Below, one piece after another: positions 3,305 through 30,939 of a DNA stretch of 64,000 nucleotides. The notes under the pieces were generated by a model that saw only the letters and a list, made by a program, of their open reading frames with translations, searched no databases and had not been told where the DNA came from. Every line of letters begins with the position of its first letter. The first letter of the stretch is position 1. The stretch is from a virus (lineage: Duplodnaviria > Caudoviricetes): IMG/VR virus record IMGVR_UViG_3300024322_000001; one strand, given 5' to 3'. The position numbers and the translations under genes are program-made.

Positions 3305-3494
3305 TAAAATATTCTTTTAAAAATTCTTCTCTATACAACATTACTTTACCTTTATAAGCTTTATTGCTTACGAACCTAGTATTTACAGGTTCTTTTGCTG
3401 ATTTAGCAGCTTTATAAACTTCTTCTCCAAGCTTTATACCTGCTGCATATCCTAAATGATCGTATAAGGATACTGAAGCTTGTTCTTTTATCAT
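3285..3494 (-). CDS. hypothetical protein
   Basis: 69-aa ORF; its start overlaps the queF stop codon. Confidence 0.65.
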   Translation of the reverse strand: MIKEQASVSLYDHLGYAAGIKLGEEVYKAAKSAKEPVNTRFVSNKAYKGKVMLYREEFLKEYFNGKRSN

Positions 3495-4405
3495 TACTGT
3501 CTAAGAGTTTTAGAAATTCTAAAATCTGTGTCTGTAAAGAAATCTGGTATAAATCTCGAATGGGTAGCTCTAATAGGATTAATATCTAAACCACCTCTTC
3601 TAGTATATAGACAAGCAACCATTAAATCATCAGGTTTATACGCATCCATTAAATGCTTAAATACCATTTCACATATTTCCTCATGAAAATGGCTTACCGT
3701 TCTATGAGATACAATATACTTAGCTAACGAAGCTACATCAGGTACATCTCTACCGTTAATTCTTATAAATACATCTCCCCAATCTGGTTGATTAGTAACC
3801 CTACAGTTAGATCTAAGTAAATTTGATTTTAACTTAACCTCGATAGGATCGTCTGAGTTATCTTCAACTGTTAGTTGATCTGAATCTGATTTAAATGCGG
3901 TAAAGTCTATTTCATCTAAATCTACTATATCACCTAAATCTGTATATCCTTCAAAAGATAATTCTTTGCCATCATCTAAATCAGTGTAAAAACTCACAGT
4001 AGTATTAGTTTCAAGTAACTTATCTAAATCAGCTTTTACCCTTCCCTCAATCTCTAAAATACATTCTACAGCTGTATCTCCTAATCTAGTCATATTAAAA
4101 GAATTTAAATATAGCTTAATAGATTTAGATTCCACGTGATATTCAGAATCTGAAGGGCATACTATTTTTAACATACCTGCTACAGGTAATCCTTTACTAG
4201 TAATAGCCGAAACTTCGTAACAGTTCCAGGTATCTACTCCAACAAAGTCTTTATCTGTCAAACCGTAACCTTCTCTATTTAAGTATCGAGGTACTTTAAC
4301 TAATAATTCTGGAGCGTAGGTATCTTTATACCCGTCTCCTCCTACTTTTCCTAAATGTTTAGACGCTATGTCTACTACTTCTTGATAATTTTTAACTTCT
4401 GCCAT
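3494..4405 (-). CDS. queF: NADPH-dependent preQ0 reductase, bimodular (type II) QueF
   Basis: QueF motif ESKSIKLYLNSF, catalytic region LRSNCRVTNQPDWG, FHEEICE, YTRRGGLDINP. Confidence 0.95.
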   Translation of the reverse strand: MAEVKNYQEVVDIASKHLGKVGGDGYKDTYAPELLVKVPRYLNREGYGLTDKDFVGVDTWNCYEVSAITSKGLPVAGMLKIVCPSDSEYHVESKSIKLYLNSFNMTRLGDTAVECILEIEGRVKADLDKLLETNTTVSFYTDLDDGKELSFEGYTDLGDIVDLDEIDFTAFKSDSDQLTVEDNSDDPIEVKLKSNLLRSNCRVTNQPDWGDVFIRINGRDVPDVASLAKYIVSHRTVSHFHEEICEMVFKHLMDAYKPDDLMVACLYTRRGGLDINPIRATHSRFIPDFFTDTDFRISKTLRQ

Positions 4406-5679: not shown

Positions 5680-6222
5680 CTATAAAATTTGTCTCAAAAA
5701 ATTGCACCACATATACAAGCTTCTATCTCTTAATATACGAAATAAATCATCTAATTCCAACTGAAAAGTATTAAATTTTTCTTCAGCAATAATTCTTCCT
5801 TCATCAACCTCAGCTACTACTTTATGCAATACTGCACCTGCTGTAGGATATTTACCTTCTTTAATACCTTCGAAAGCTCTTACTTGAGGATCTTTACCTT
5901 TCAGTTCTGGATATTCAGTTATGAGCCCTGGATGCCCATTATAGATAAGGTATTTTCTACATATAGAAGGAGGCATAACTCTTAACCACCCGTGTAAAGT
6001 AACTAAAGCATTATCTTCTAACACTACATCATAATCCTCTACTGATGGTTTATTCGGCAGGAAAATAATATCCATATCGAGTAATTCATCATTTATTTTT
6101 CTTAAATGCTCAGGTCTTTGATTAGTAATTATTTTATCAGGCCATCTACCAAATGCCTTTGCTATATCTACTATTTCAGTCCCTGTCTGACTAAAGAATG
6201 CTATCCAAAGTTTGTCTCCCAT
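5680..6222 (-). CDS. dpdN: PurN-like formyltransferase, putative dPreQ1 formyltransferase DpdN
   Basis: FFSQTGTE (PurN SGxGSN equivalent), LHGWLRVM, NGHPGL (catalytic N/H), HKVVAEVDEG (catalytic D); adjacent to the DpdA-like gene. Confidence 0.8.
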   Translation of the reverse strand: MGDKLWIAFFSQTGTEIVDIAKAFGRWPDKIITNQRPEHLRKINDELLDMDIIFLPNKPSVEDYDVVLEDNALVTLHGWLRVMPPSICRKYLIYNGHPGLITEYPELKGKDPQVRAFEGIKEGKYPTAGAVLHKVVAEVDEGRIIAEEKFNTFQLELDDLFRILRDRSLYMWCNFLRQIL

Positions 6223-7733: not shown

Positions 7734-8169
7734 TTTTACTCATTTTTTTCCACCAATCTGTTTTATTGATGAGTTGTTTTTCTTTTCTGTCTACTAAATC
7801 GTCTAAATGATCGTATATACCACGATCCCAATCGTCTTGATATCTAATGATATCATCTTCTCCGAAATAATCTCCGGTTTGCACTTCTATAAATTGTACT
7901 GGTTTATCAGTTTTATTCCAAGCTCTATGTTTACTGCAGCAAGGTATGGTTATAGATTCACCAGGATTATCTAGAGAGTATTCATCACCATCTCTAATGA
8001 CAGTTAACTCTCCACTTACTAGAGTCCATTGCTCTTGTCTCTTCTCATGAGACTGATAGGATAATCTCTTACCTGGAGCTACGGTGATTAGTTTAACTTT
8101 AGTAAAGTCAGTATCTAATAGTACATCGTAGCAACCCCAAGGTCTTTCATCGTGTTCTAATGATTGCAT
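7726..8169 (-). CDS. cupin, phosphomannose isomerase type II C-terminal-like
   Basis: ERPWGCY, LSYQSHEKRQEQW, IEVQTGDYFGEDDIIRYQDDW. Confidence 0.85.
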   Translation of the reverse strand: MQSLEHDERPWGCYDVLLDTDFTKVKLITVAPGKRLSYQSHEKRQEQWTLVSGELTVIRDGDEYSLDNPGESITIPCCSKHRAWNKTDKPVQFIEVQTGDYFGEDDIIRYQDDWDRGIYDHLDDLVDRKEKQLINKTDWWKKMSKNG

Positions 8170-8870
8170 TTCTCTGCTAATTCTATATTCTTATAAAACT
8201 CAGCTTTAGCTGATGGTTCATCTAAAAAGGCTCCAGTTAGTTTAGCTGTTTGCATTGATGCTCCTCCATGCTTAACTCCTCTACAGGAAACACAAGCGTG
8301 AGTTGCATTAACTTGAACTGCTACTCCTAAATTGCCTTCACATATCTTATCTACTGCATTATGTATAGCTACAGTTAACTGCTCTTGAATAGCTCCTCTT
8401 CTACCGAATTGTTCTACTATTCTATTTAGTTTAGATAGTCCTACTACCTTACCATCTTCTGAAGCTATATAAGCAATACTTACTGTGCCTCTAATAGCTT
8501 GATGATGATGCGAACACATAGACGTTACTGGTATGTTACTCTCTTGTACGATACCGTCATACCCGTCTGAAGGAAAAGCTGTAATCTTATCTAAAGGGCT
8601 ATATCTTCCAGCCCATAAATCGTTAACATATGCTTTAGCTACCCTAAATGGTGTATCTGCAGAGTTAGGATCTGCTGCATAATCACATCCTAAAGCGGTA
8701 AGGAACTCTGCATAAGCCTTTGCTGCTCTTTCTATAATTACTTGTTTTTCATGATCAGTAAGTCTTGCTTCTGGTCCTTCCAGCTTTTGTTTTTCTGCTA
8801 ATTGAGTTGAAATACCGTTAGCGAAACCGGCTTTTACTAATTCTGTTCCTTTTATAAACTTTTTTGGCAT
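8157..8870 (-). CDS. folE: GTP cyclohydrolase I
   Basis: TPFRVAKAY, SMCSHH, GLSKLNR, QEQLT, HACVSCRG. Confidence 0.96.
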   Translation of the reverse strand: MPKKFIKGTELVKAGFANGISTQLAEKQKLEGPEARLTDHEKQVIIERAAKAYAEFLTALGCDYAADPNSADTPFRVAKAYVNDLWAGRYSPLDKITAFPSDGYDGIVQESNIPVTSMCSHHHQAIRGTVSIAYIASEDGKVVGLSKLNRIVEQFGRRGAIQEQLTVAIHNAVDKICEGNLGVAVQVNATHACVSCRGVKHGGASMQTAKLTGAFLDEPSAKAEFYKNIELAEKCNH

Positions 8871-8878
8871 AATATAAT

Positions 8879-8908
8879 TTATGTTTTTATTGAGGTTCTA
8901 CGACTCAT
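8879..8908 (-). ncRNA. putative preQ1-I riboswitch aptamer in the folE leader
   Basis: A-UGAG-UCGUAGAAC-CUCA-AUAAAAACAUA: P1 stem, UCG..AG..AC loop and A-rich tail. Sits between the promoter and the folE AUG. Confidence 0.7.
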
Positions 8909-8919
8909 TACTATAACTT

Positions 8920-8950
8920 AATATAAGAACTTTTATTCATTAATCCAAAT
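8920..8950 (-). promoter_or_regulatory. Bacteroidota sigma-type promoter (TTG-N20-TATATT) upstream of folE
   Basis: ATTTG-N20-TATATT; the same 31-bp spacing recurs at about 11 other gene starts. Confidence 0.7.
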
Positions 8951-9359
8951 AATCTTGAATTGTTTTTGAATCTTTTTTCTCCCATGGGTACACGATCCAA
9001 TCAGTAGTTTCTAACCAATTGCAGTAGAAGTCTGGTTTTGTTACTGTAGTGTTTCTTACGTCTAATGTAGCTGTTGTGTATCCCTGTTTCTTAAAGTGTT
9101 TGAGGGTCTGTCCAGAGTCGGATATATCATCCACTATTAATATTTTTTTCTTATCTATATTAAGGTTAAACTCCTCTAACTTTTCTAGATGGTCTATAGT
9201 TATGTGCTTTATCCCCAGTTTATGAGACATAATGACTGCTACTACTAAACCTCCTCTCGGTATACCTACTACGTAATCTACATTTTTAATTTTATTTGCT
9301 AATTTTTCTACCTGGTGGTCTATATCGTTCCAGGTAACGAATACTTTTTTTGGAGTCAT
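8940..9359 (-). CDS. type I purine phosphoribosyltransferase (Gpt/Hpt-like)
   Basis: VVGIPRGGL, PRPP loop LIVDDISDSGQT, WIVYPWE. Confidence 0.9.
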   Translation of the reverse strand: MTPKKVFVTWNDIDHQVEKLANKIKNVDYVVGIPRGGLVVAVIMSHKLGIKHITIDHLEKLEEFNLNIDKKKILIVDDISDSGQTLKHFKKQGYTTATLDVRNTTVTKPDFYCNWLETTDWIVYPWEKKDSKTIQDYLD

Positions 9360-9665: not shown

Positions 9666-9789
9666 TTATAAAAATTTTTAGTTTATCTATTAATACTAGT
9701 ACATCGTCTGGTTCCATAGTAATAGCACAGCATGTATTAATATTTTCTTCTACTTCTTCTAATATCTCTAAAGCTTCGTCTTTAGTCAT
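9655..9789 (-). CDS. hypothetical protein (44 aa)
   Basis: Hand-translated MTKDEALEILEEVEENINTCCAITMEPDDVLVLIDKLKIFINEL; start overlaps the queE stop. Confidence 0.6.
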   Translation of the reverse strand: MTKDEALEILEEVEENINTCCAITMEPDDVLVLIDKLKIFINEL

Positions 9790-10577
9790 TATACTTCACG
9801 TTGATCTTCAAAAGCAATGATATGCGGTCTCCAAGTCATTCTATAACCATTATCTCTAACCCAATCAAATAATACCGGATAAGATTTAAATAATGCTTCC
9901 CTTGAATCTCCTGCAGGCATAAACCATACCTTACTTTTAGGTATTTTTAACCTGTAAATACAGGTCATTATTTCCTCTAAAGCTTTTTCATCTTTACCAT
10001 CCCATACAGGTTTTAAATGATAGTCAGAGTGGTAATTGATACTTTCTTCTATAGCATCATAATTAAGTCTAAACTTATTATGCTGCTTTATCATTCTTTC
10101 GTCAGTAATCCCTCCTTGAGGAGTCTCTACGCCAATGACTGGAACAGAATTAGAAAACTTAGGGCTAATAGATAGCAGATTAATAGGGTAATCTGTGGGT
10201 AGAAAGTGACTACCTTCAGTTTCGATAGTAATAAATATATTATTCTCATTTGCAAAGTGTGTTAATTCGTTTACCAAAGCTGGATGCATTGTAGGAGAAC
10301 CTCCTGTTAGCATCATTTCTTTAATATGGGGGTTATCTTTATACTTTTGTATAATATCGTTAAAATTAAATTGACCTTTTTCTGGATGGATTGAAGTATA
10401 CCAGCTATCACACCAGCCTCCTTCTCCAAAGTAACATCTATGGGTACAGCCAGTAGTTCTAATTACTATAGTTGGGTACCCTGCTCTTGAACCTTCTGAC
10501 TGTACTGCAGTATAAACTTCTACAATCGGTAAGTTCTTTTCGTAATCTTCTATTCTTTTTAATTGTTTATGCGACAT
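9789..10577 (-). CDS. queE: 7-carboxy-7-deazaguanine synthase (radical SAM)
   Basis: EVYTAVQSEG, RTTGC, CTHRC...WCD, TGGSP, ETEG, SISPK, RPH. Confidence 0.93.
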   Translation of the reverse strand: MSHKQLKRIEDYEKNLPIVEVYTAVQSEGSRAGYPTIVIRTTGCTHRCYFGEGGWCDSWYTSIHPEKGQFNFNDIIQKYKDNPHIKEMMLTGGSPTMHPALVNELTHFANENNIFITIETEGSHFLPTDYPINLLSISPKFSNSVPVIGVETPQGGITDERMIKQHNKFRLNYDAIEESINYHSDYHLKPVWDGKDEKALEEIMTCIYRLKIPKSKVWFMPAGDSREALFKSYPVLFDWVRDNGYRMTWRPHIIAFEDQREV

Positions 10578-11031
10578 AATAAGCTGCGTTTTTTCCGTGT
10601 TCCATAAATTTTACTTTCGTCACCTTAACTCTACCTTCTGTTTCTTCTTCTACAAAATCATTTAATTTATTAAAAATATATTCTGCAAATTTTTCTGCTC
10701 CGGTAGCAGGTATAACTCTGATTTGTGCTACTTCTGATAATCCCATATGTAGAAATTTATCTAAATAGGGGTCGTCCTGAGCAACTATGAAGGTATGGTC
10801 GAACATATAATCCATCCATTGCTTAGGAGATAAGCCATCTATTTTAGTCTTAGCTCTTTTCATACCTCCGAAGTCCCATACCCAGTTTCTGTAGTCTAAT
10901 TCTCCTTCAAAATATACTTTAAATGCTACTCCGTAGCCGTGAACAAACCTACAATGTGTATCTTCTGCTTTCCATTGACGGAACACAGTAGAGAACCCGT
11001 CGAATACTTTACTTGATTGAAATTTTCCCAT
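10567..11031 (-). CDS. queD: 6-carboxytetrahydropterin synthase
   Basis: HCRFVHGY, DFG, FDHT, GAEKFA, terminal E. Confidence 0.92.
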   Translation of the reverse strand: MGKFQSSKVFDGFSTVFRQWKAEDTHCRFVHGYGVAFKVYFEGELDYRNWVWDFGGMKRAKTKIDGLSPKQWMDYMFDHTFIVAQDDPYLDKFLHMGLSEVAQIRVIPATGAEKFAEYIFNKLNDFVEEETEGRVKVTKVKFMEHGKNAAYYVA

Positions 11032-11040
11032 ATCTTTAAT

Positions 11041-11274
11041 TTAAACTAATTCTTCCCCTATTCCAACTATTTCTGCTAAAAATAGACCTATAAAGCCTAA
11101 TTCAAACATACCAAAGAAGCCAAAAGCACATGCTCCTAGCCTAATAGCTGATTTTAAAAATGAAATTCTTTGGTGAAGTTTCGGATCAGGTATTTTCTGT
11201 CCGTCGATCTCAATAGAACCTTTTTGTTTTTTAAACTCCGTATCTTTATACAGAGTATTTGCTTTTTTACTCAT
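11041..11274 (-). CDS. small membrane protein, first gene of the queD-queE operon
   Basis: Two short hydrophobic segments (AIRLGACAFGFFG, LGFIGLFLAEIVG). Confidence 0.7.
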   Translation of the reverse strand: MSKKANTLYKDTEFKKQKGSIEIDGQKIPDPKLHQRISFLKSAIRLGACAFGFFGMFELGFIGLFLAEIVGIGEELV

Positions 11275-11276
11275 AT

Positions 11277-11306
11277 TGGTGTTTTTAAAGTGGTGCTACG
11301 ACACTA
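11277..11306 (-). ncRNA. putative preQ1-I riboswitch aptamer in the leader of the queD/queE operon
   Basis: U-AGUG-UCGUAGCAC-CACU-UUAAAAAC: nearly the same loop as the folE copy with a different, compensated stem. Confidence 0.65.
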
Positions 11307-11324
11307 TAGTCTTATATTACTTAT

Positions 11325-11355
11325 AATATAATAAAAAAAGGGATAGTAAGCAACT
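11325..11355 (-). promoter_or_regulatory. sigma-type promoter AGTTG-N20-TATATT
   Basis: Recurring bipartite motif; overlaps the upstream terminator. Confidence 0.65.
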
Positions 11356-11363
11356 ATCCCCTT
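11333..11363 (-). terminator. intrinsic terminator after fibre gene 11383..13131
   Basis: GGGATAGT-TGCTT-ACTATCCC hairpin followed by a T run on the minus strand. Confidence 0.8.
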
Positions 11364-11382
11364 AGTTTTTTTTAAATTATTT

Positions 11383-13131
11383 TTATGCTAGTAATGCTAA
11401 TAAAGAACCTGTAAAGTCATTGTAGTTTGTTGACCCTGTTAATGCAGCTCTTAATTTTGCTTTGCTAACATAATTTAATTCAATAGAAGCTGATGGTACA
11501 AATGTGTAAGCATCCTGCTCTAAATCGTGAATATCGTTATGATTTTCTGTCCACGATTGTGCTATAGAAGCAGACAGCATTGTAAATGAACCTGTAATGT
11601 CAGCTTTTAAAGCGTATGAACTTGTTGCTGCTAATAGTCCTAGTTGCGAACCAGATAATGCAGCTATATCGTCATTGTTGTTACTTACATCGGTTTGTAG
11701 AATTGCTATGTCATCTACATTGGCAGTAGTCACGACTGCAAAAGATGCTGAAACTGCATCTAGCTGTGCATCAGTAGCATACTCACTATCTATAGAGGAA
11801 CTAAAACTTTCTAAGCTTATAATTCTAGCATCTAAAGAAGCTGTAGCTGTATATAATTCATCTTCAGAAGCATATATATTATCAAATGAAGAACTAAAGT
11901 TTAATAGATGTGCTGTTTCTAAAGCAAGTGATGAAGACACACTATCTAGTTGTGCGTCTGTAGCATAATAGTTGTCTAAAGAAGAACTAAAGTGATCTAA
12001 TCTAGCTATAGATTCCGAGACATTGCTATATCCTGCTATCGATAATTGACCAGATTCTGCTTTAATATTTCTAATTGTGACAATGTCATTATCTGCTGAT
12101 ATTTTGCCAGTGGTATTTATATCATCAGAAGCATATATAGTACCGGTTACCGCGATTCCATTAGTAGTAGTTGAGAATTTTTTAGCATTATCATAATAAA
12201 GCTCAATAGGACCATCTTTTGTAAACTTAGCAAAAGTTTCTCCCAATTGTCCTGATTTGATTTCAACTTCATTATCTGAAACTATTAATAGATCTCCAGA
12301 TCCTTTTTCCTGTATATGTGAATTTCCAGCTACATCTGAGAATATATCTAGTTTGCTATCTATTGCAATTTTTCTACCTGCTGTGGCAAGTATTATATCT
12401 CCATTGGATACTGTTACTGTACCTTCTTGATCAAGAGTACCAATTCTAGTATAGTCTCCTTTTTGACCAGTATCTCCATTGTGATCTATATCACCAAGTA
12501 AAAAAGTACTACCTGTAATTGATAAATCTCCTTTAAATTTACTATCTGCATTTACATAGAAAGGATAGTCAGCTTCTTCTTTTAGATTTGCTCCTAATTT
12601 AAATCTACTTGAAGAAGGATGGTTAATCTGTATTCCTGCATATCTGGTAGGAATACCAGATTCTACTTTATAGTAGTCTTCTAATTTAATATGTTCTCCA
12701 TTACCACCAGCTACTCCATCTCTTCCTGCTTCAGAGATACTAAATTTATTATTATAAAAAGTAGTATAGTTTACGTTTGAAGACGTAGTTTCTGCTGCTA
12801 ATTGAAGACCGTGTAAACCTTCTGTATCAGTCGGTAGTACCTCTAACAATCCTCCTCCGTTAACTCCCTTTTGAAGATTTATATCGTCTCCTAGAGTTAT
12901 AGATTTATTAGAATCTAATCCTCCACTAACAAATACTGAACCTGTGAAGTTATGTAGATCATCTGCAGAATCTCCAAACAGAGTAGAACCTGATCTGTAG
13001 ATGATTGATGTTTGTACTTTTTCCGTTATAAATTGTTCTGCAGTTACATCTCCTGTAACTATCAGACTGCCGGATAGACTTACTATCTGTCCGCTTATCG
13101 GTTTAATGCTATTTACTCTAATTCTACTCAT
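11383..13131 (-). CDS. putative virion fibre/structural protein
   Basis: SIIYRSGSTLFGDSADDLHNFTGS motif, VELYYDN-like knob (IELYYDNAKKF), C-terminal YATDAQL coiled-coil repeats; late-type motif upstream. Confidence 0.65.
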   Translation of the reverse strand: MSRIRVNSIKPISGQIVSLSGSLIVTGDVTAEQFITEKVQTSIIYRSGSTLFGDSADDLHNFTGSVFVSGGLDSNKSITLGDDINLQKGVNGGGLLEVLPTDTEGLHGLQLAAETTSSNVNYTTFYNNKFSISEAGRDGVAGGNGEHIKLEDYYKVESGIPTRYAGIQINHPSSSRFKLGANLKEEADYPFYVNADSKFKGDLSITGSTFLLGDIDHNGDTGQKGDYTRIGTLDQEGTVTVSNGDIILATAGRKIAIDSKLDIFSDVAGNSHIQEKGSGDLLIVSDNEVEIKSGQLGETFAKFTKDGPIELYYDNAKKFSTTTNGIAVTGTIYASDDINTTGKISADNDIVTIRNIKAESGQLSIAGYSNVSESIARLDHFSSSLDNYYATDAQLDSVSSSLALETAHLLNFSSSFDNIYASEDELYTATASLDARIISLESFSSSIDSEYATDAQLDAVSASFAVVTTANVDDIAILQTDVSNNNDDIAALSGSQLGLLAATSSYALKADITGSFTMLSASIAQSWTENHNDIHDLEQDAYTFVPSASIELNYVSKAKLRAALTGSTNYNDFTGSLLALLA

Positions 13132-13149
13132 CTTATATAAATATGTCTA

Positions 13150-14589
13150 TTAATCTGTTAATGCGTATTTTACTACGTAAACATCAGAATTTTGTGATAT
13201 AAATAATTCTCCGTTTACTTCTGTATCGTGAAACAATCTCATATTGTAGTTAGGCGGTACTACTGTTGATGGTATAGCTTTAGGAGACATGAAATAATTC
13301 GAATCAACCGAATTAGCTGTTAGTCTATGCTGCACTGTAGAACTTCCGTTAACTACTGTGTTACCATTTGTTGTTAATGAACCAGTAACGTTTAAGCTAC
13401 CTGTTATACTATGTTTGTCATCTAATGTATCTCCGAACTGTGTCGAACCTGATTGGTATATTACTGAAGAAGATACTATTGATGTATTAAACTGGTTTGC
13501 AGTAAGTGTTCCGTCAATAGTAACGTCACCTGTGACGTCTATATTACCTACTTGATTGGTATCTCCTGTCAGGTCATATGTACCAGTTTGGATAAAATTA
13601 CCTTCCTGTACTATACTCCCGGAAATAGCTATATCTGTACTGCCTGTAATATTTACTGCTCCAGTTAATGTAGTATCTCCTAATAAGGTAAAATCTCCTG
13701 CCTGTGAAGTGCTTCCTGTTCGGATTAATACTCCGTTTTGAATTATACTACCTGAAATATGTATGTCTGTACTTCCTGTAATTGCAACTTCTCCTGATAA
13801 TGTTGTTACACCAGTAGAGGTTAAAGAACCTGAGCTTATTAAACTTCCTGTTATGCTCGATTTACCTATTAGTGATGAATCTCCTGAAGTTTCACTATTT
13901 CCTACACGTTTTAAGGTTCCTGTTTGTCTTAGTCCACCCTGTATGTCAAAATCACCTATATTATTGAACCGTCCAGTGTGATCTGTACGTCCTGTTTTTG
14001 CAGTATCTCCTACTTGAGTAAACTTACCTGTTTGTTCGGTATCACCTGTATGTTTATATAATCCTATATGAGAATTAATCCCAGTATGTGTAAAATCACC
14101 TTCAAGATCATAATCTCCTTTTTGATCCGAATCTCCTAGTAGTTCTATACTTCCGGTTTGTTCAATGTTTCCAATTAAACTGTAATTACCTGTTTGATCA
14201 ATATCCCCGCTAAGGTTTATGCTACCAATTTGTGTAGTATCCCCAACTTGAAAGGTACTTCCTGTAATAGTTAAATTTCCTACTAAGTTTTCACTGCCGG
14301 AAATTAAAAGGCTACCTGTAAATGTATGGTTATCATCTTGAGTATCACCGTACTTAGTAGAGCCGGATTCATATATAATAGAAGAAGTAACCTGTGTTGC
14401 TATAAATCTTCTTGCAGTTACAGGTCCATCTACATTTAGGCTTCCTGTAACTTCAAGCACGCCACTGACGGTAAGATCGGCCATTGAGCCTGATAGGATT
14501 CTTCCGTATCCGTCTTGTAGTATTCCTTTATCAACTTGAACTATCCGTTGATAAGTTTTATTAATCTTATTGCTGGTAAAATCTGCCAT
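13150..14589 (-). CDS. putative virion fibre protein (Gly-periodic beta-helix)
   Basis: Gly every ~6 residues over ~300 aa; two copies of S-I/V-IYxSGSTx(Y/F)GDTxDDxH. Confidence 0.65.
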   Translation of the reverse strand: MADFTSNKINKTYQRIVQVDKGILQDGYGRILSGSMADLTVSGVLEVTGSLNVDGPVTARRFIATQVTSSIIYESGSTKYGDTQDDNHTFTGSLLISGSENLVGNLTITGSTFQVGDTTQIGSINLSGDIDQTGNYSLIGNIEQTGSIELLGDSDQKGDYDLEGDFTHTGINSHIGLYKHTGDTEQTGKFTQVGDTAKTGRTDHTGRFNNIGDFDIQGGLRQTGTLKRVGNSETSGDSSLIGKSSITGSLISSGSLTSTGVTTLSGEVAITGSTDIHISGSIIQNGVLIRTGSTSQAGDFTLLGDTTLTGAVNITGSTDIAISGSIVQEGNFIQTGTYDLTGDTNQVGNIDVTGDVTIDGTLTANQFNTSIVSSSVIYQSGSTQFGDTLDDKHSITGSLNVTGSLTTNGNTVVNGSSTVQHRLTANSVDSNYFMSPKAIPSTVVPPNYNMRLFHDTEVNGELFISQNSDVYVVKYALTD

Positions 14590-14660: not shown

Positions 14661-14734
14661 TGGAGAATATCGGAGTCGAACCGATGACCTCCTGCGTGCA
14701 AGGCAGGCGCTCTAGCCAGCTGAGCTAATCCCCC
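14661..14734 (-). tRNA. tRNA-Ala(UGC), CCA not encoded
   Basis: GGGGGATTAGCTCAGCTGGCTAGAGCGCCTGCCTTGCACGCAGGAGGTCATCGGTTCGACTCCGATATTCTCCA; cloverleaf, TGC anticodon, G3:U70 Ala identity pair. Confidence 0.96.
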
Positions 14735-14910: not shown

Positions 14911-15699
14911 TTATACATAGTCAGCAAGTACTTTTTCAACATGAGTTTTTGCTACTTCGTAATCAACCACTCCAGTTTCATCCTCATACTGTACAGGATC
15001 TTTTCTCCCCAAAGCAATAAAAGCCTCAATCCTCTCAACACTAGAAGCAGACTTATAATCGGAATTTCCACTAGGATAGGGTTTGTACGATGTATTAGTT
15101 CTCTTATAAACTTCATCAAAATCAATACCTAAAATTTCACATAATTTTTCTCCATCTTGTAGAATACCAAATTTATCAGTATCTAAATAAGGTGTAAAGT
15201 AACCTACTCTATCTGCATCCCAGTTTCCAATTCTAAAAGCTGCATCATCTGCATCTCTAAATTCTTGTCTACAATCAGGATAAACTGCATGATCACCAGC
15301 ATGAATACCTAAAGCAATATCACAAACGTCTTCTGTTCTATTTGCTACAGATAATGCAACTGCTTGAGTAATTGAAGCAAACATTTTGTTTCTATTAGGA
15401 ACAACTGTTTCTTTCATATTATCTTGCTCATAATGTCCTTCTGGTACATCATCCCCACCTGTAACTAAAGCTGAGTCTAATAAATCTACTAGACCATCAA
15501 GTTTAATTTGACGATAATTTATTTTGTGTCCTTTACTTGCAAGGTAATCAATTAATGATTGAGCTCTCTCTAGCTCTACTCTGTGTTTTTGACCGTAATC
15601 AAATGAGATACCAGTTACGGTATCATACTTCTCGATAGCTCTTAACAATAGGGTGCTACTATCCATTCCACCACTTAAACTTACTACACAATGTGCCAT
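14911..15699 (-). CDS. queC: 7-cyano-7-deazaguanine synthase (Zn-binding Cys motif absent)
   Basis: SLSGGMDS PP-loop, FDYGQKH, VPNRN, YPDCR. Confidence 0.95.
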   Translation of the reverse strand: MAHCVVSLSGGMDSSTLLLRAIEKYDTVTGISFDYGQKHRVELERAQSLIDYLASKGHKINYRQIKLDGLVDLLDSALVTGGDDVPEGHYEQDNMKETVVPNRNKMFASITQAVALSVANRTEDVCDIALGIHAGDHAVYPDCRQEFRDADDAAFRIGNWDADRVGYFTPYLDTDKFGILQDGEKLCEILGIDFDEVYKRTNTSYKPYPSGNSDYKSASSVERIEAFIALGRKDPVQYEDETGVVDYEVAKTHVEKVLADYV

Positions 15700-15752
15700 A
15701 ATTTACTTATTTAATTTTTGCCAGGTATTTTGCGTATAGGCTAACGCTTTTA

Positions 15753-16442: not shown

Positions 16443-16506
16443 ATCTTATTCTTTATTATAATATACGAATAATAAATGTTATTTCCAACTATACACTAAT
16501 TTTTTT

Positions 16507-30896: not shown

Positions 30897-30939
30897 TTAA
30901 CTGTAACCTTTTAGTTAAATATAATATAAGAAAAATATT

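Follow-up and report, generated by a model that had tools for sequence, protein, structure and literature searches.

A hairpin followed by an A-rich tail, about 25-30 nt in all and placed just 5' of the start codon of a small ORF-queD-queE-phosphoribosyltransferase operon, is probably (we put it at roughly 0.7) a compact variant of the preQ1-I aptamer acting as a translational off-switch, a reading in which we infer the ligand, the pseudoknot and the direction of control. A more specific form of this reading, to which slightly better than even odds may be given, is that the element is a preQ1-I aptamer peculiar to phages and reduced to a core of about 25-29 nt, below the size of the Tte and Bsu aptamers, that its loop L3 is at the same time the ribosome-recruiting tract, and that two paralogues limit the flow of GTP into a guanine-replacing DNA base. 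The window, by which we mean the whole stretch of 64,000 nucleotides analysed, belongs to a 116-kb IMG/VR virus record and represents a Flavobacteriia-type phage with folE, queD, queE, queC, queF and dpdA3.

Read on the minus strand, positions 11305-11272 give AGUG-UCGUAGCAC-CACU-UUAAAAAC-ACCAAU-AUG, exactly the string reported in the initial annotation. The 5' strand of the stem P1 (AGUG, 11302-11305) pairs with CACU (11289-11292), and its closing pair, G4-C14, is G-C in every copy of the element. The loop UCGUAGCAC (11293-11301) can be divided into L1 (U, C), the 5' strand of P2 (G, U, A, G) and L2 (C, A), followed by a putative specificity cytosine, C13, at 11293. Downstream of P1 the tail UUAAAAA (the candidate L3, 11282-11288) covers -14 to -8 relative to the AUG, its adenines falling at -12 to -8, where the A-run had been placed beforehand; directly 3' of it stand C25 (11281), the hexamer ACCAAU (11275-11280) and the AUG (11274-11272), all of these on the minus strand. 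The 3' strand of P2 would be CACC (11278-11281), in which C25 would pair with the loop base G10 and the base three positions further on (+3) with the loop base N8. At the latter position the small-ORF copy of the window has a U-C mismatch (U8-C28), leaving a single canonical P2 pair, in line with the earlier caution that tail pairing beyond the G-C pair is weaker here than in the folE copy.

Flavobacterium ribosomes ignore Shine-Dalgarno (SD) sequences and need an open leader with adenines at -14 to -11, -6 and -3 (Baez et al. 2019, PMC6847099). In the small-ORF leader of the window adenines are present at -12 to -8, -6 and -3, and no SD-like sequence was found; the anticipated A-rich leader devoid of an SD is thus present, and its A-tract overlaps the -14 to -11 enhancer zone (PMC6847099).

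The AUG does not directly precede queD, as had been assumed in the initial annotation: it opens a 77-aa ORF (11041-11274, minus strand), queD starting at 11031. This first cistron encodes a small membrane protein with a conserved C-terminus and has 261 homologous clusters, where the only name given, if any, is hypothetical; it falls in no Pfam family and its look-alikes in the ESM Atlas are viral clusters, no function being obtained from either source. The homologues are 55-107 aa long; their N-terminus varies, their hydrophobic C-terminus (IPDPKLHQ..SF.KS.IR..G ... EIVGI.EELV) is conserved, and they nearly always adjoin queD on its 5' side. The small ORF is followed on the same strand by queD (PTPS family, 10567-11031), a queE-like radical SAM gene (9789-10577), a 100-aa ORF and a phosphoribosyltransferase gene (8940-9359), the last gene before the sister copy of the element. 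The queE-like gene scores 29.3 bits with Radical_SAM, the Pfam cut-off being 29.5, and was named after homologues annotated as QueE in the phages immuto and phiST. Thereafter folE (GTP cyclohydrolase I, 8157-8870, minus strand) heads a folE-cupin-MazG...dpdA3 series, in which the product of the gene after the cupin and MazG-like genes shares 75% identity with DpdA of Flavobacterium phage immuto. Two further genes of the pathway, encoding QueC (14911-15699) and a QueF-domain protein (3494-4405), are located elsewhere in the window and carry no copy of the element. The queC leader (15700-15750, minus strand) has a different small GC-containing hairpin (GCGU...ACGC) and then an A-rich run before the AUG, and is not matched by the covariance model R1 described below. 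Between queC and the queD operon lie two large repeat-rich tail-fibre-like ORFs (11383-14589, minus strand) and a tRNA gene (14661-14734, minus strand), which split the 7-deazaguanine genes into separate transcription units.

The tail-fibre-like gene immediately upstream of the element (11383-13131, minus strand) is ended by an intrinsic terminator-like hairpin with an 11-pair stem and a T-run (11337-11363, minus strand), so that a new transcription unit must begin downstream of it. A promoter-like TATATT box (11325-11330, minus strand) is found there, about 20 nt upstream of the hairpin. A box of this kind, (C/T)(G/T)TATATT, precedes nearly every copy of the element by a variable 13-22 nt, and the TATATT motif also occurs in the window before other genes that lack the hairpin. 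As it is likewise kept before folE in some phages without the hairpin, the element is not part of the promoter. Across the window the extended motif YKTATATTR has 25 sites, 19 of them on the gene (minus) strand (e.g. 2232-2240, 5731-5739, 8919-8927, 16459-16467 and 30922-30930, all minus); it may be a promoter element of the phage, its total being not above that of shuffled sequences (25 vs 18 +/- 5). Contigs from four seawater metatranscriptome runs of 2018 match the window between 6000 and 13500 without differences, which indicates that this phage or a near-identical strain is present in those samples, with carry-over of DNA being possible. Among the metatranscriptome pieces listed, none bridges 11305-11364 and one ends at 11304, the latter being at most a weak hint of a transcription start, as contigs cannot show transcript ends. 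The stretch from the element to the AUG contains no terminator, and the AUG follows C25 by 5-13 nt in 71 copies with a single exception; control by the element must therefore act on translation or on mRNA stability.

The sister copy, UGAG UCGUAGAAC CUCA AUAAAAAC A (8882-8907, minus strand), is situated 12 nt upstream of the folE AUG. Its loop is identical to that of the small-ORF copy at 8 of 9 bases, while the stems differ and are each complementary, so the two sequences bear out what had been noticed of them. It had also been claimed that both copies sit only at the heads of que operons, just past a promoter. The copies are restricted to the two 7-deazaguanine operon heads, and the element at the small ORF follows closely on a terminator and a promoter-like box. 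No terminator precedes the folE copy, and metatranscriptome contigs bridge it. A translational switch would consequently act on folE whatever promoter is used. The folE copy is also carried by a cultured phage, vB_FspM_immuto_2-6A, which grows on Flavobacterium sp. LMO8. In five related loci (L173, L175, L179, L198 and L205) the TATATT promoter-like box is kept before folE while the hairpin is absent, and several of these have a copy elsewhere in the record, which makes the folE copy appear optional.

IMG/VR was scanned with a loop-plus-tail pattern, which was found in at least 113 stretches, with 121 exact matches listed. Four complementary flanking pairs are present in 101 of the 121 matches listed, as opposed to roughly 2% expected, which places the element above chance. 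Of these 101 stem-forming matches, 58 are followed first by the small ORF, 36 by folE, three by queD and three by queE, the remaining locus being incomplete. The possibility raised at the outset that the motif also stands before genes unrelated to preQ metabolism was thereby checked, and no such case was encountered: the association with preQ1/queuosine-precursor genes holds for 100 of the 101 stem-forming copies listed. Two pattern-free searches, of the regions upstream of small-ORF homologues and of folE homologues, recovered the element together with loop variants (UCACAG, UCGGAG, UCGAAG and UUGAAG), stems AGUG, GGUG, UGUG, GGAG, UGAG and UAAG, and A-tails of 6-10 nt.

An alignment (A1) and a covariance model (R1) were built from 71 distinct phage copies, including both copies of the window. 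In the 64 kb window R1 finds two sites, the small-ORF copy at 51.3 bits and the folE copy at 48.5 bits, scores that are inflated because both copies sit in the model; the next best site reaches 14.7 bits. A third TCGTAGAAC in the window (35924) lacks a flanking stem and was rejected as a chance occurrence. The 116-kb record has two matches, and R1 gives 0-2 copies on each of the whole phage records searched, which extend up to 191 kb and of which four are rated complete; paired copies are 2-6 kb apart and on one strand. Throughout 98 related loci every match shares the strand of the genes and either adjoins folE on its 5' side or stands at the operon head, about 2.3 kb further upstream, and the downstream synteny is small ORF > queD > queE > PRT > folE > MazG > dpdA3. 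Of the 32 whole records compared, 27 encode QueF, and 25 of these carry the element; the five without QueF, phage phiST among them, all lack it. This association is consistent with preQ1 being the signal, but relatedness among the phages could yield the same pattern. An exact-pattern scan of prokaryotes, with one genome for each of 185,579 species, recovered the true element on one contig only. This contig, NYWG01000135.1 (L231, 5.9 kb), assigned to a Verrucomicrobiales MAG, contains both elements, the small ORF and folE, and looks like a mis-binned phage fragment. Matches in Ruminococcus and Terriglobales in the same scan lack stems or que genes and were discarded as chance.

The conservation pattern is that of a covarying stem around a nearly fixed loop. 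P1 is paired in 99.3% of cells among the 71 distinct copies, and in three of the four pairs both partners change (AU/UA/GC, UA/AU and GC/AU), which substantiates the covariation initially deduced from the two copies of one genome. The pairing is destroyed when the partner columns are slid, and RNAalifold independently predicts the identical hairpin. Across the 71 copies no variation is seen at U5, A9, G10, A12, C13 and A26, in the G4-C14 pair or in the core of the A-run; by alignment column, T8, A12, G13, A15 and C16 are invariant, C9 and G10 are at least 90% conserved, and columns 7/17, the closing pair of P1, are G-C in all 68 distinct rows. The retrieval patterns imposed the A-run and C25, but not the A after C25, and this base is A in 71 of 71 copies. 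The tail measures 6-10 nt across copies. As G10 and C25 never vary (C25 having been imposed by retrieval), covariation of the G10-C25 pair is uninformative either way. The base N8 and the base three after C25 form a canonical pair in 54 of the 71 copies, for which a shuffle test gives about 0.03. Broken down by base, U pairs with A/G in 48 copies, C with G in 4 of 4 and G with C/U in 2 of 2, while A meets U in 0 of 3. A C at loop position 8 is seen in L133, L140, L160 and L164 (loop UCACAG) and a G in L065 and L193 (loop UCGGAG), the +3 base varying along. This N8/+3 co-variation is a weak signal, and nothing else in the alignment hints at covariation in the pseudoknot helix P2. P1 alone amounts to -2.7 to -3.9 kcal/mol, no better than shuffles, and in the small-ORF copy of the window it is not the minimum-energy fold. 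Such marginal stability suits a ligand-stabilised fold and argues against a protective 5' hairpin.

The sequences of the Tte and Bsu preQ1-I aptamers are available from PMC10639078, and a hand alignment by structure was made to the former. Set against each other, Tte reads CUGGG UC GCAG UAA C CCCAG UUAACAAAA C AAGG and the window copy AGUG UC GUAG CA C CACU UUAAAAA C ACCA, with 16 of 18 non-stem positions identical; the alignment columns T8, C9, G10, A12, G13, A15 and C16 map onto Tte U6, C7, G8, A10, G11, A14 and C15. The division of preQ1-I into types reportedly originates from McCown et al. 2014. In type II, AC precedes the 3' strand of P1 and its cytosine pairs with preQ1 (PMC11625349, a 2024 review). 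In the phage copies the marks of this type are present, namely an invariant AC before the P1 3' strand, an invariant U opening L1, and a G-C closing pair. In the known pocket the L1 uridine (U6) reads the edge of preQ1, the closing G of P1 makes contact with its aminomethyl group, and a C7-G11-C30 layer forms the cap (PMC11625349); each pocket base listed in the same review is matched in the phage element by a base that is invariant or nearly so. Only two of the four steps of Tte P2 are canonical pairs (PMC11625349), and by analogy the phage P2 would also have two canonical steps, G10-C25 and N8/+3, the latter being the equivalent of Tte C9-G33.

The initial designation as preQ1-I-like is upheld by the invariant bases, which agree with the type II pocket position for position, but not by the Rfam PreQ1 model. 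This model (RF00522, gathering threshold 39 bits) gives no match on any of three copies at E<=10, 71-nt searches included. Conversely, the phage model applied to seven Rfam-positive Bacillota preQ1-I sites scores 8.4 bits at best at one of them and gives nothing within E<=10 at the others, and in most of these sites UC stands directly 5' of the second P1 strand and the tail is of the CUA type. As neither model recognises the members of the other, membership of preQ1-I rests on the hand alignment to one solved aptamer together with the genomic context. The element is absent from Rfam 15. The only PreQ1 match in the vicinity, at 11356-11391 with 17.3 bits, falls on the terminator region and was put down to chance similarity of A-rich sequence. 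DUF805 RNA (RF03081) was likewise dismissed: it scores 17.4 bits against a threshold of 51.1 on the small-ORF copy only, with no match on the folE copy or the immuto copy, and its setting fails as well, the 77-aa ORF having no DUF805 domain.

If the element works as a preQ1 sensor, the following course of events can be envisaged. The element would be located at or near the 5' end of the small ORF-queD-queE-PRTase mRNA, and the FolE-QueD-QueE-QueC-QueF pathway of the phage would supply its ligand, free preQ1 or the precursor preQ0. The ligand would bind between the 4-bp P1 and the short helix P2, pairing with C13 (11293) and being contacted by U5 and the last tail adenine, with the G4-C14 pair as the floor of the pocket, the G10-C25 pair as its ceiling and the A-tract lodged in the minor groove of P1. 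The resulting H-type pseudoknot would span -31 to about -4 relative to the AUG and bury the A-rich leader that the SD-blind Flavobacteriia ribosomes need, so that 30S loading would be blocked and initiation would fall. On this model, an SD-independent expression platform formed by a pseudoknot over an A-rich leader, as already proposed, is plausible. The sister copy would act likewise on folE. The two copies head the genes of pathway steps 1-3, where feedback usually acts, and together they would exert feedback on FolE, QueD and QueE, the enzymes diverting GTP to the DNA base that is placed via DpdA3.

One alternative is that the hairpin is an operator for an RNA-binding protein of the phage or the host, a translational repressor or activator reading the loop and the A-tail without sensing any small molecule. 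RNA operators bound by proteins also typically combine a conserved loop with a variable stem, and both the lack of strong covariation in P2 and the failure of either covariance model to recognise the other family would be in keeping with this. However, the base-for-base match of the invariant positions to the Tte pocket would then be a coincidence, and so would the confinement of the element to the first three preQ1-pathway enzymes and to phages encoding QueF, and no candidate protein is known; we regard a protein operator as unlikely. Rated a little lower still is the idea that the aptamer fold is the same and its specificity has shifted, towards preQ0 only, 7-deazaguanine, the formylated base or guanine. 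L2 and P1 of the pocket are indeed shorter, the final base differs among related phages (fdPreQ1, dDG and mdPreQ1; PMC10516641), and variants with altered ligands are known in other riboswitch classes (PMC11625349). Against such a shift, the specificity cytosine, the L1 uridine and the closing G that reads the aminomethyl group in known structures are all kept, and the element tracks QueF, the enzyme which makes preQ1.

A function independent of any ligand, either as a hairpin at the 5' end with a role in mRNA stability or processing, or as a palindromic DNA operator or promoter part, appears the most improbable of these explanations. It would agree with the position of the element near the likely transcription start, for which the contig end at 11304 gives its weak hint, and a 4-bp inverted repeat could be a DNA site: P1 has no G-U pairs in any copy, and its pairing pattern alone cannot distinguish an RNA stem from a DNA palindrome. 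Yet a hairpin of such marginal stability would protect a 5' end poorly. An RNA element rather than a DNA site is also indicated by the conserved and asymmetric spacer between variable arms, the reverse of what a dimeric DNA operator would display, and by a fixed strand and distance to the AUG combined with a varying distance to the TATATT box. The same box moreover occurs without the element, before folE in some phages included, and there are only one or two occurrences of the element per genome of 160-190 kb.

The preQ1-sensing reading, which we prefer, would connect the element to the modification of phage DNA. In the DNA of immuto formyl-preQ1 takes the place of all guanine, and in that of phiST this place is taken by 7-deazaguanine, which is not a preQ1 derivative (PMC10516641). 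Regulation of the pathway and promoters are not mentioned in that paper on phage 7-deazaguanines (PMC10516641), and riboswitches are rarely found in phages according to a survey of their distribution (PMC5473149). Our literature search retrieved no paper combining DpdA, phage, preQ1 and riboswitch, and no riboswitch governing DNA hypermodification. Should the RNA bind preQ1, these phages would meter a costly base-replacement pathway by means of an RNA sensor, and the element would be a natural riboswitch expression platform without an SD. It would at the same time constitute an aptamer smaller than those of Tte and Bsu, of use in structural work and as a genetic tool in Bacteroidota.

Compared with known systems, the element resembles type II preQ1-I (T. 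tengcongensis, B. subtilis; RF00522) in having P1, an A-rich tail and a C able to pair back into the loop. The likeness to Tte extends to the tail UUAA..AAAAC-A, to the placement on the translation initiation region and to the preQ1/queuosine-precursor genes downstream. The phage form is more compact, with a P1 of 4 bp as against 5 in Tte and Bsu, an L2 of 3 nt (2 nt plus C) as against 4-6, an L3 of 7 nt as against 8-9, and a core of about 25-29 nt as against 33-34; the shorter L3 fits the shorter stem that it has to span. Unlike type II it has no SD in P2, and it is tied to the synthesis of a DNA base and not to tRNA queuosine. The idea of an H-type pseudoknot and the specificity cytosine are common to types I and III as well. 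In type I, UC precedes the second strand of P1 and two ligands are bound, while type III is marked by a pyrimidine-rich loop and by the pairing of an AAGG SD (PMC11625349). The phage motif, with its AC and no SD, differs from both.

Metabolite-sensing leaders encoded by phages are likewise represented by c-di-GMP-I in C. difficile prophages and glutamine aptamers in cyanophages (PMC5473149). Those belong to ordinary bacterial classes and occur in a handful of phages, while the preQ1-like form is seen on more than 100 viral contigs and, within the exact-pattern scan of 185,579 species genomes, only on the one phage-like MAG contig. With the SD-independent leaders of Flavobacteriia the element shares an A-rich tract around -14 to -11 and adenines at -3 and -6, in leaders that are sensitive to structure (PMC6847099). 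Unlike in ordinary Flavobacteriia leaders, the A-tract of the phage would double as the aptamer loop L3, and would in this way itself constitute the expression platform.
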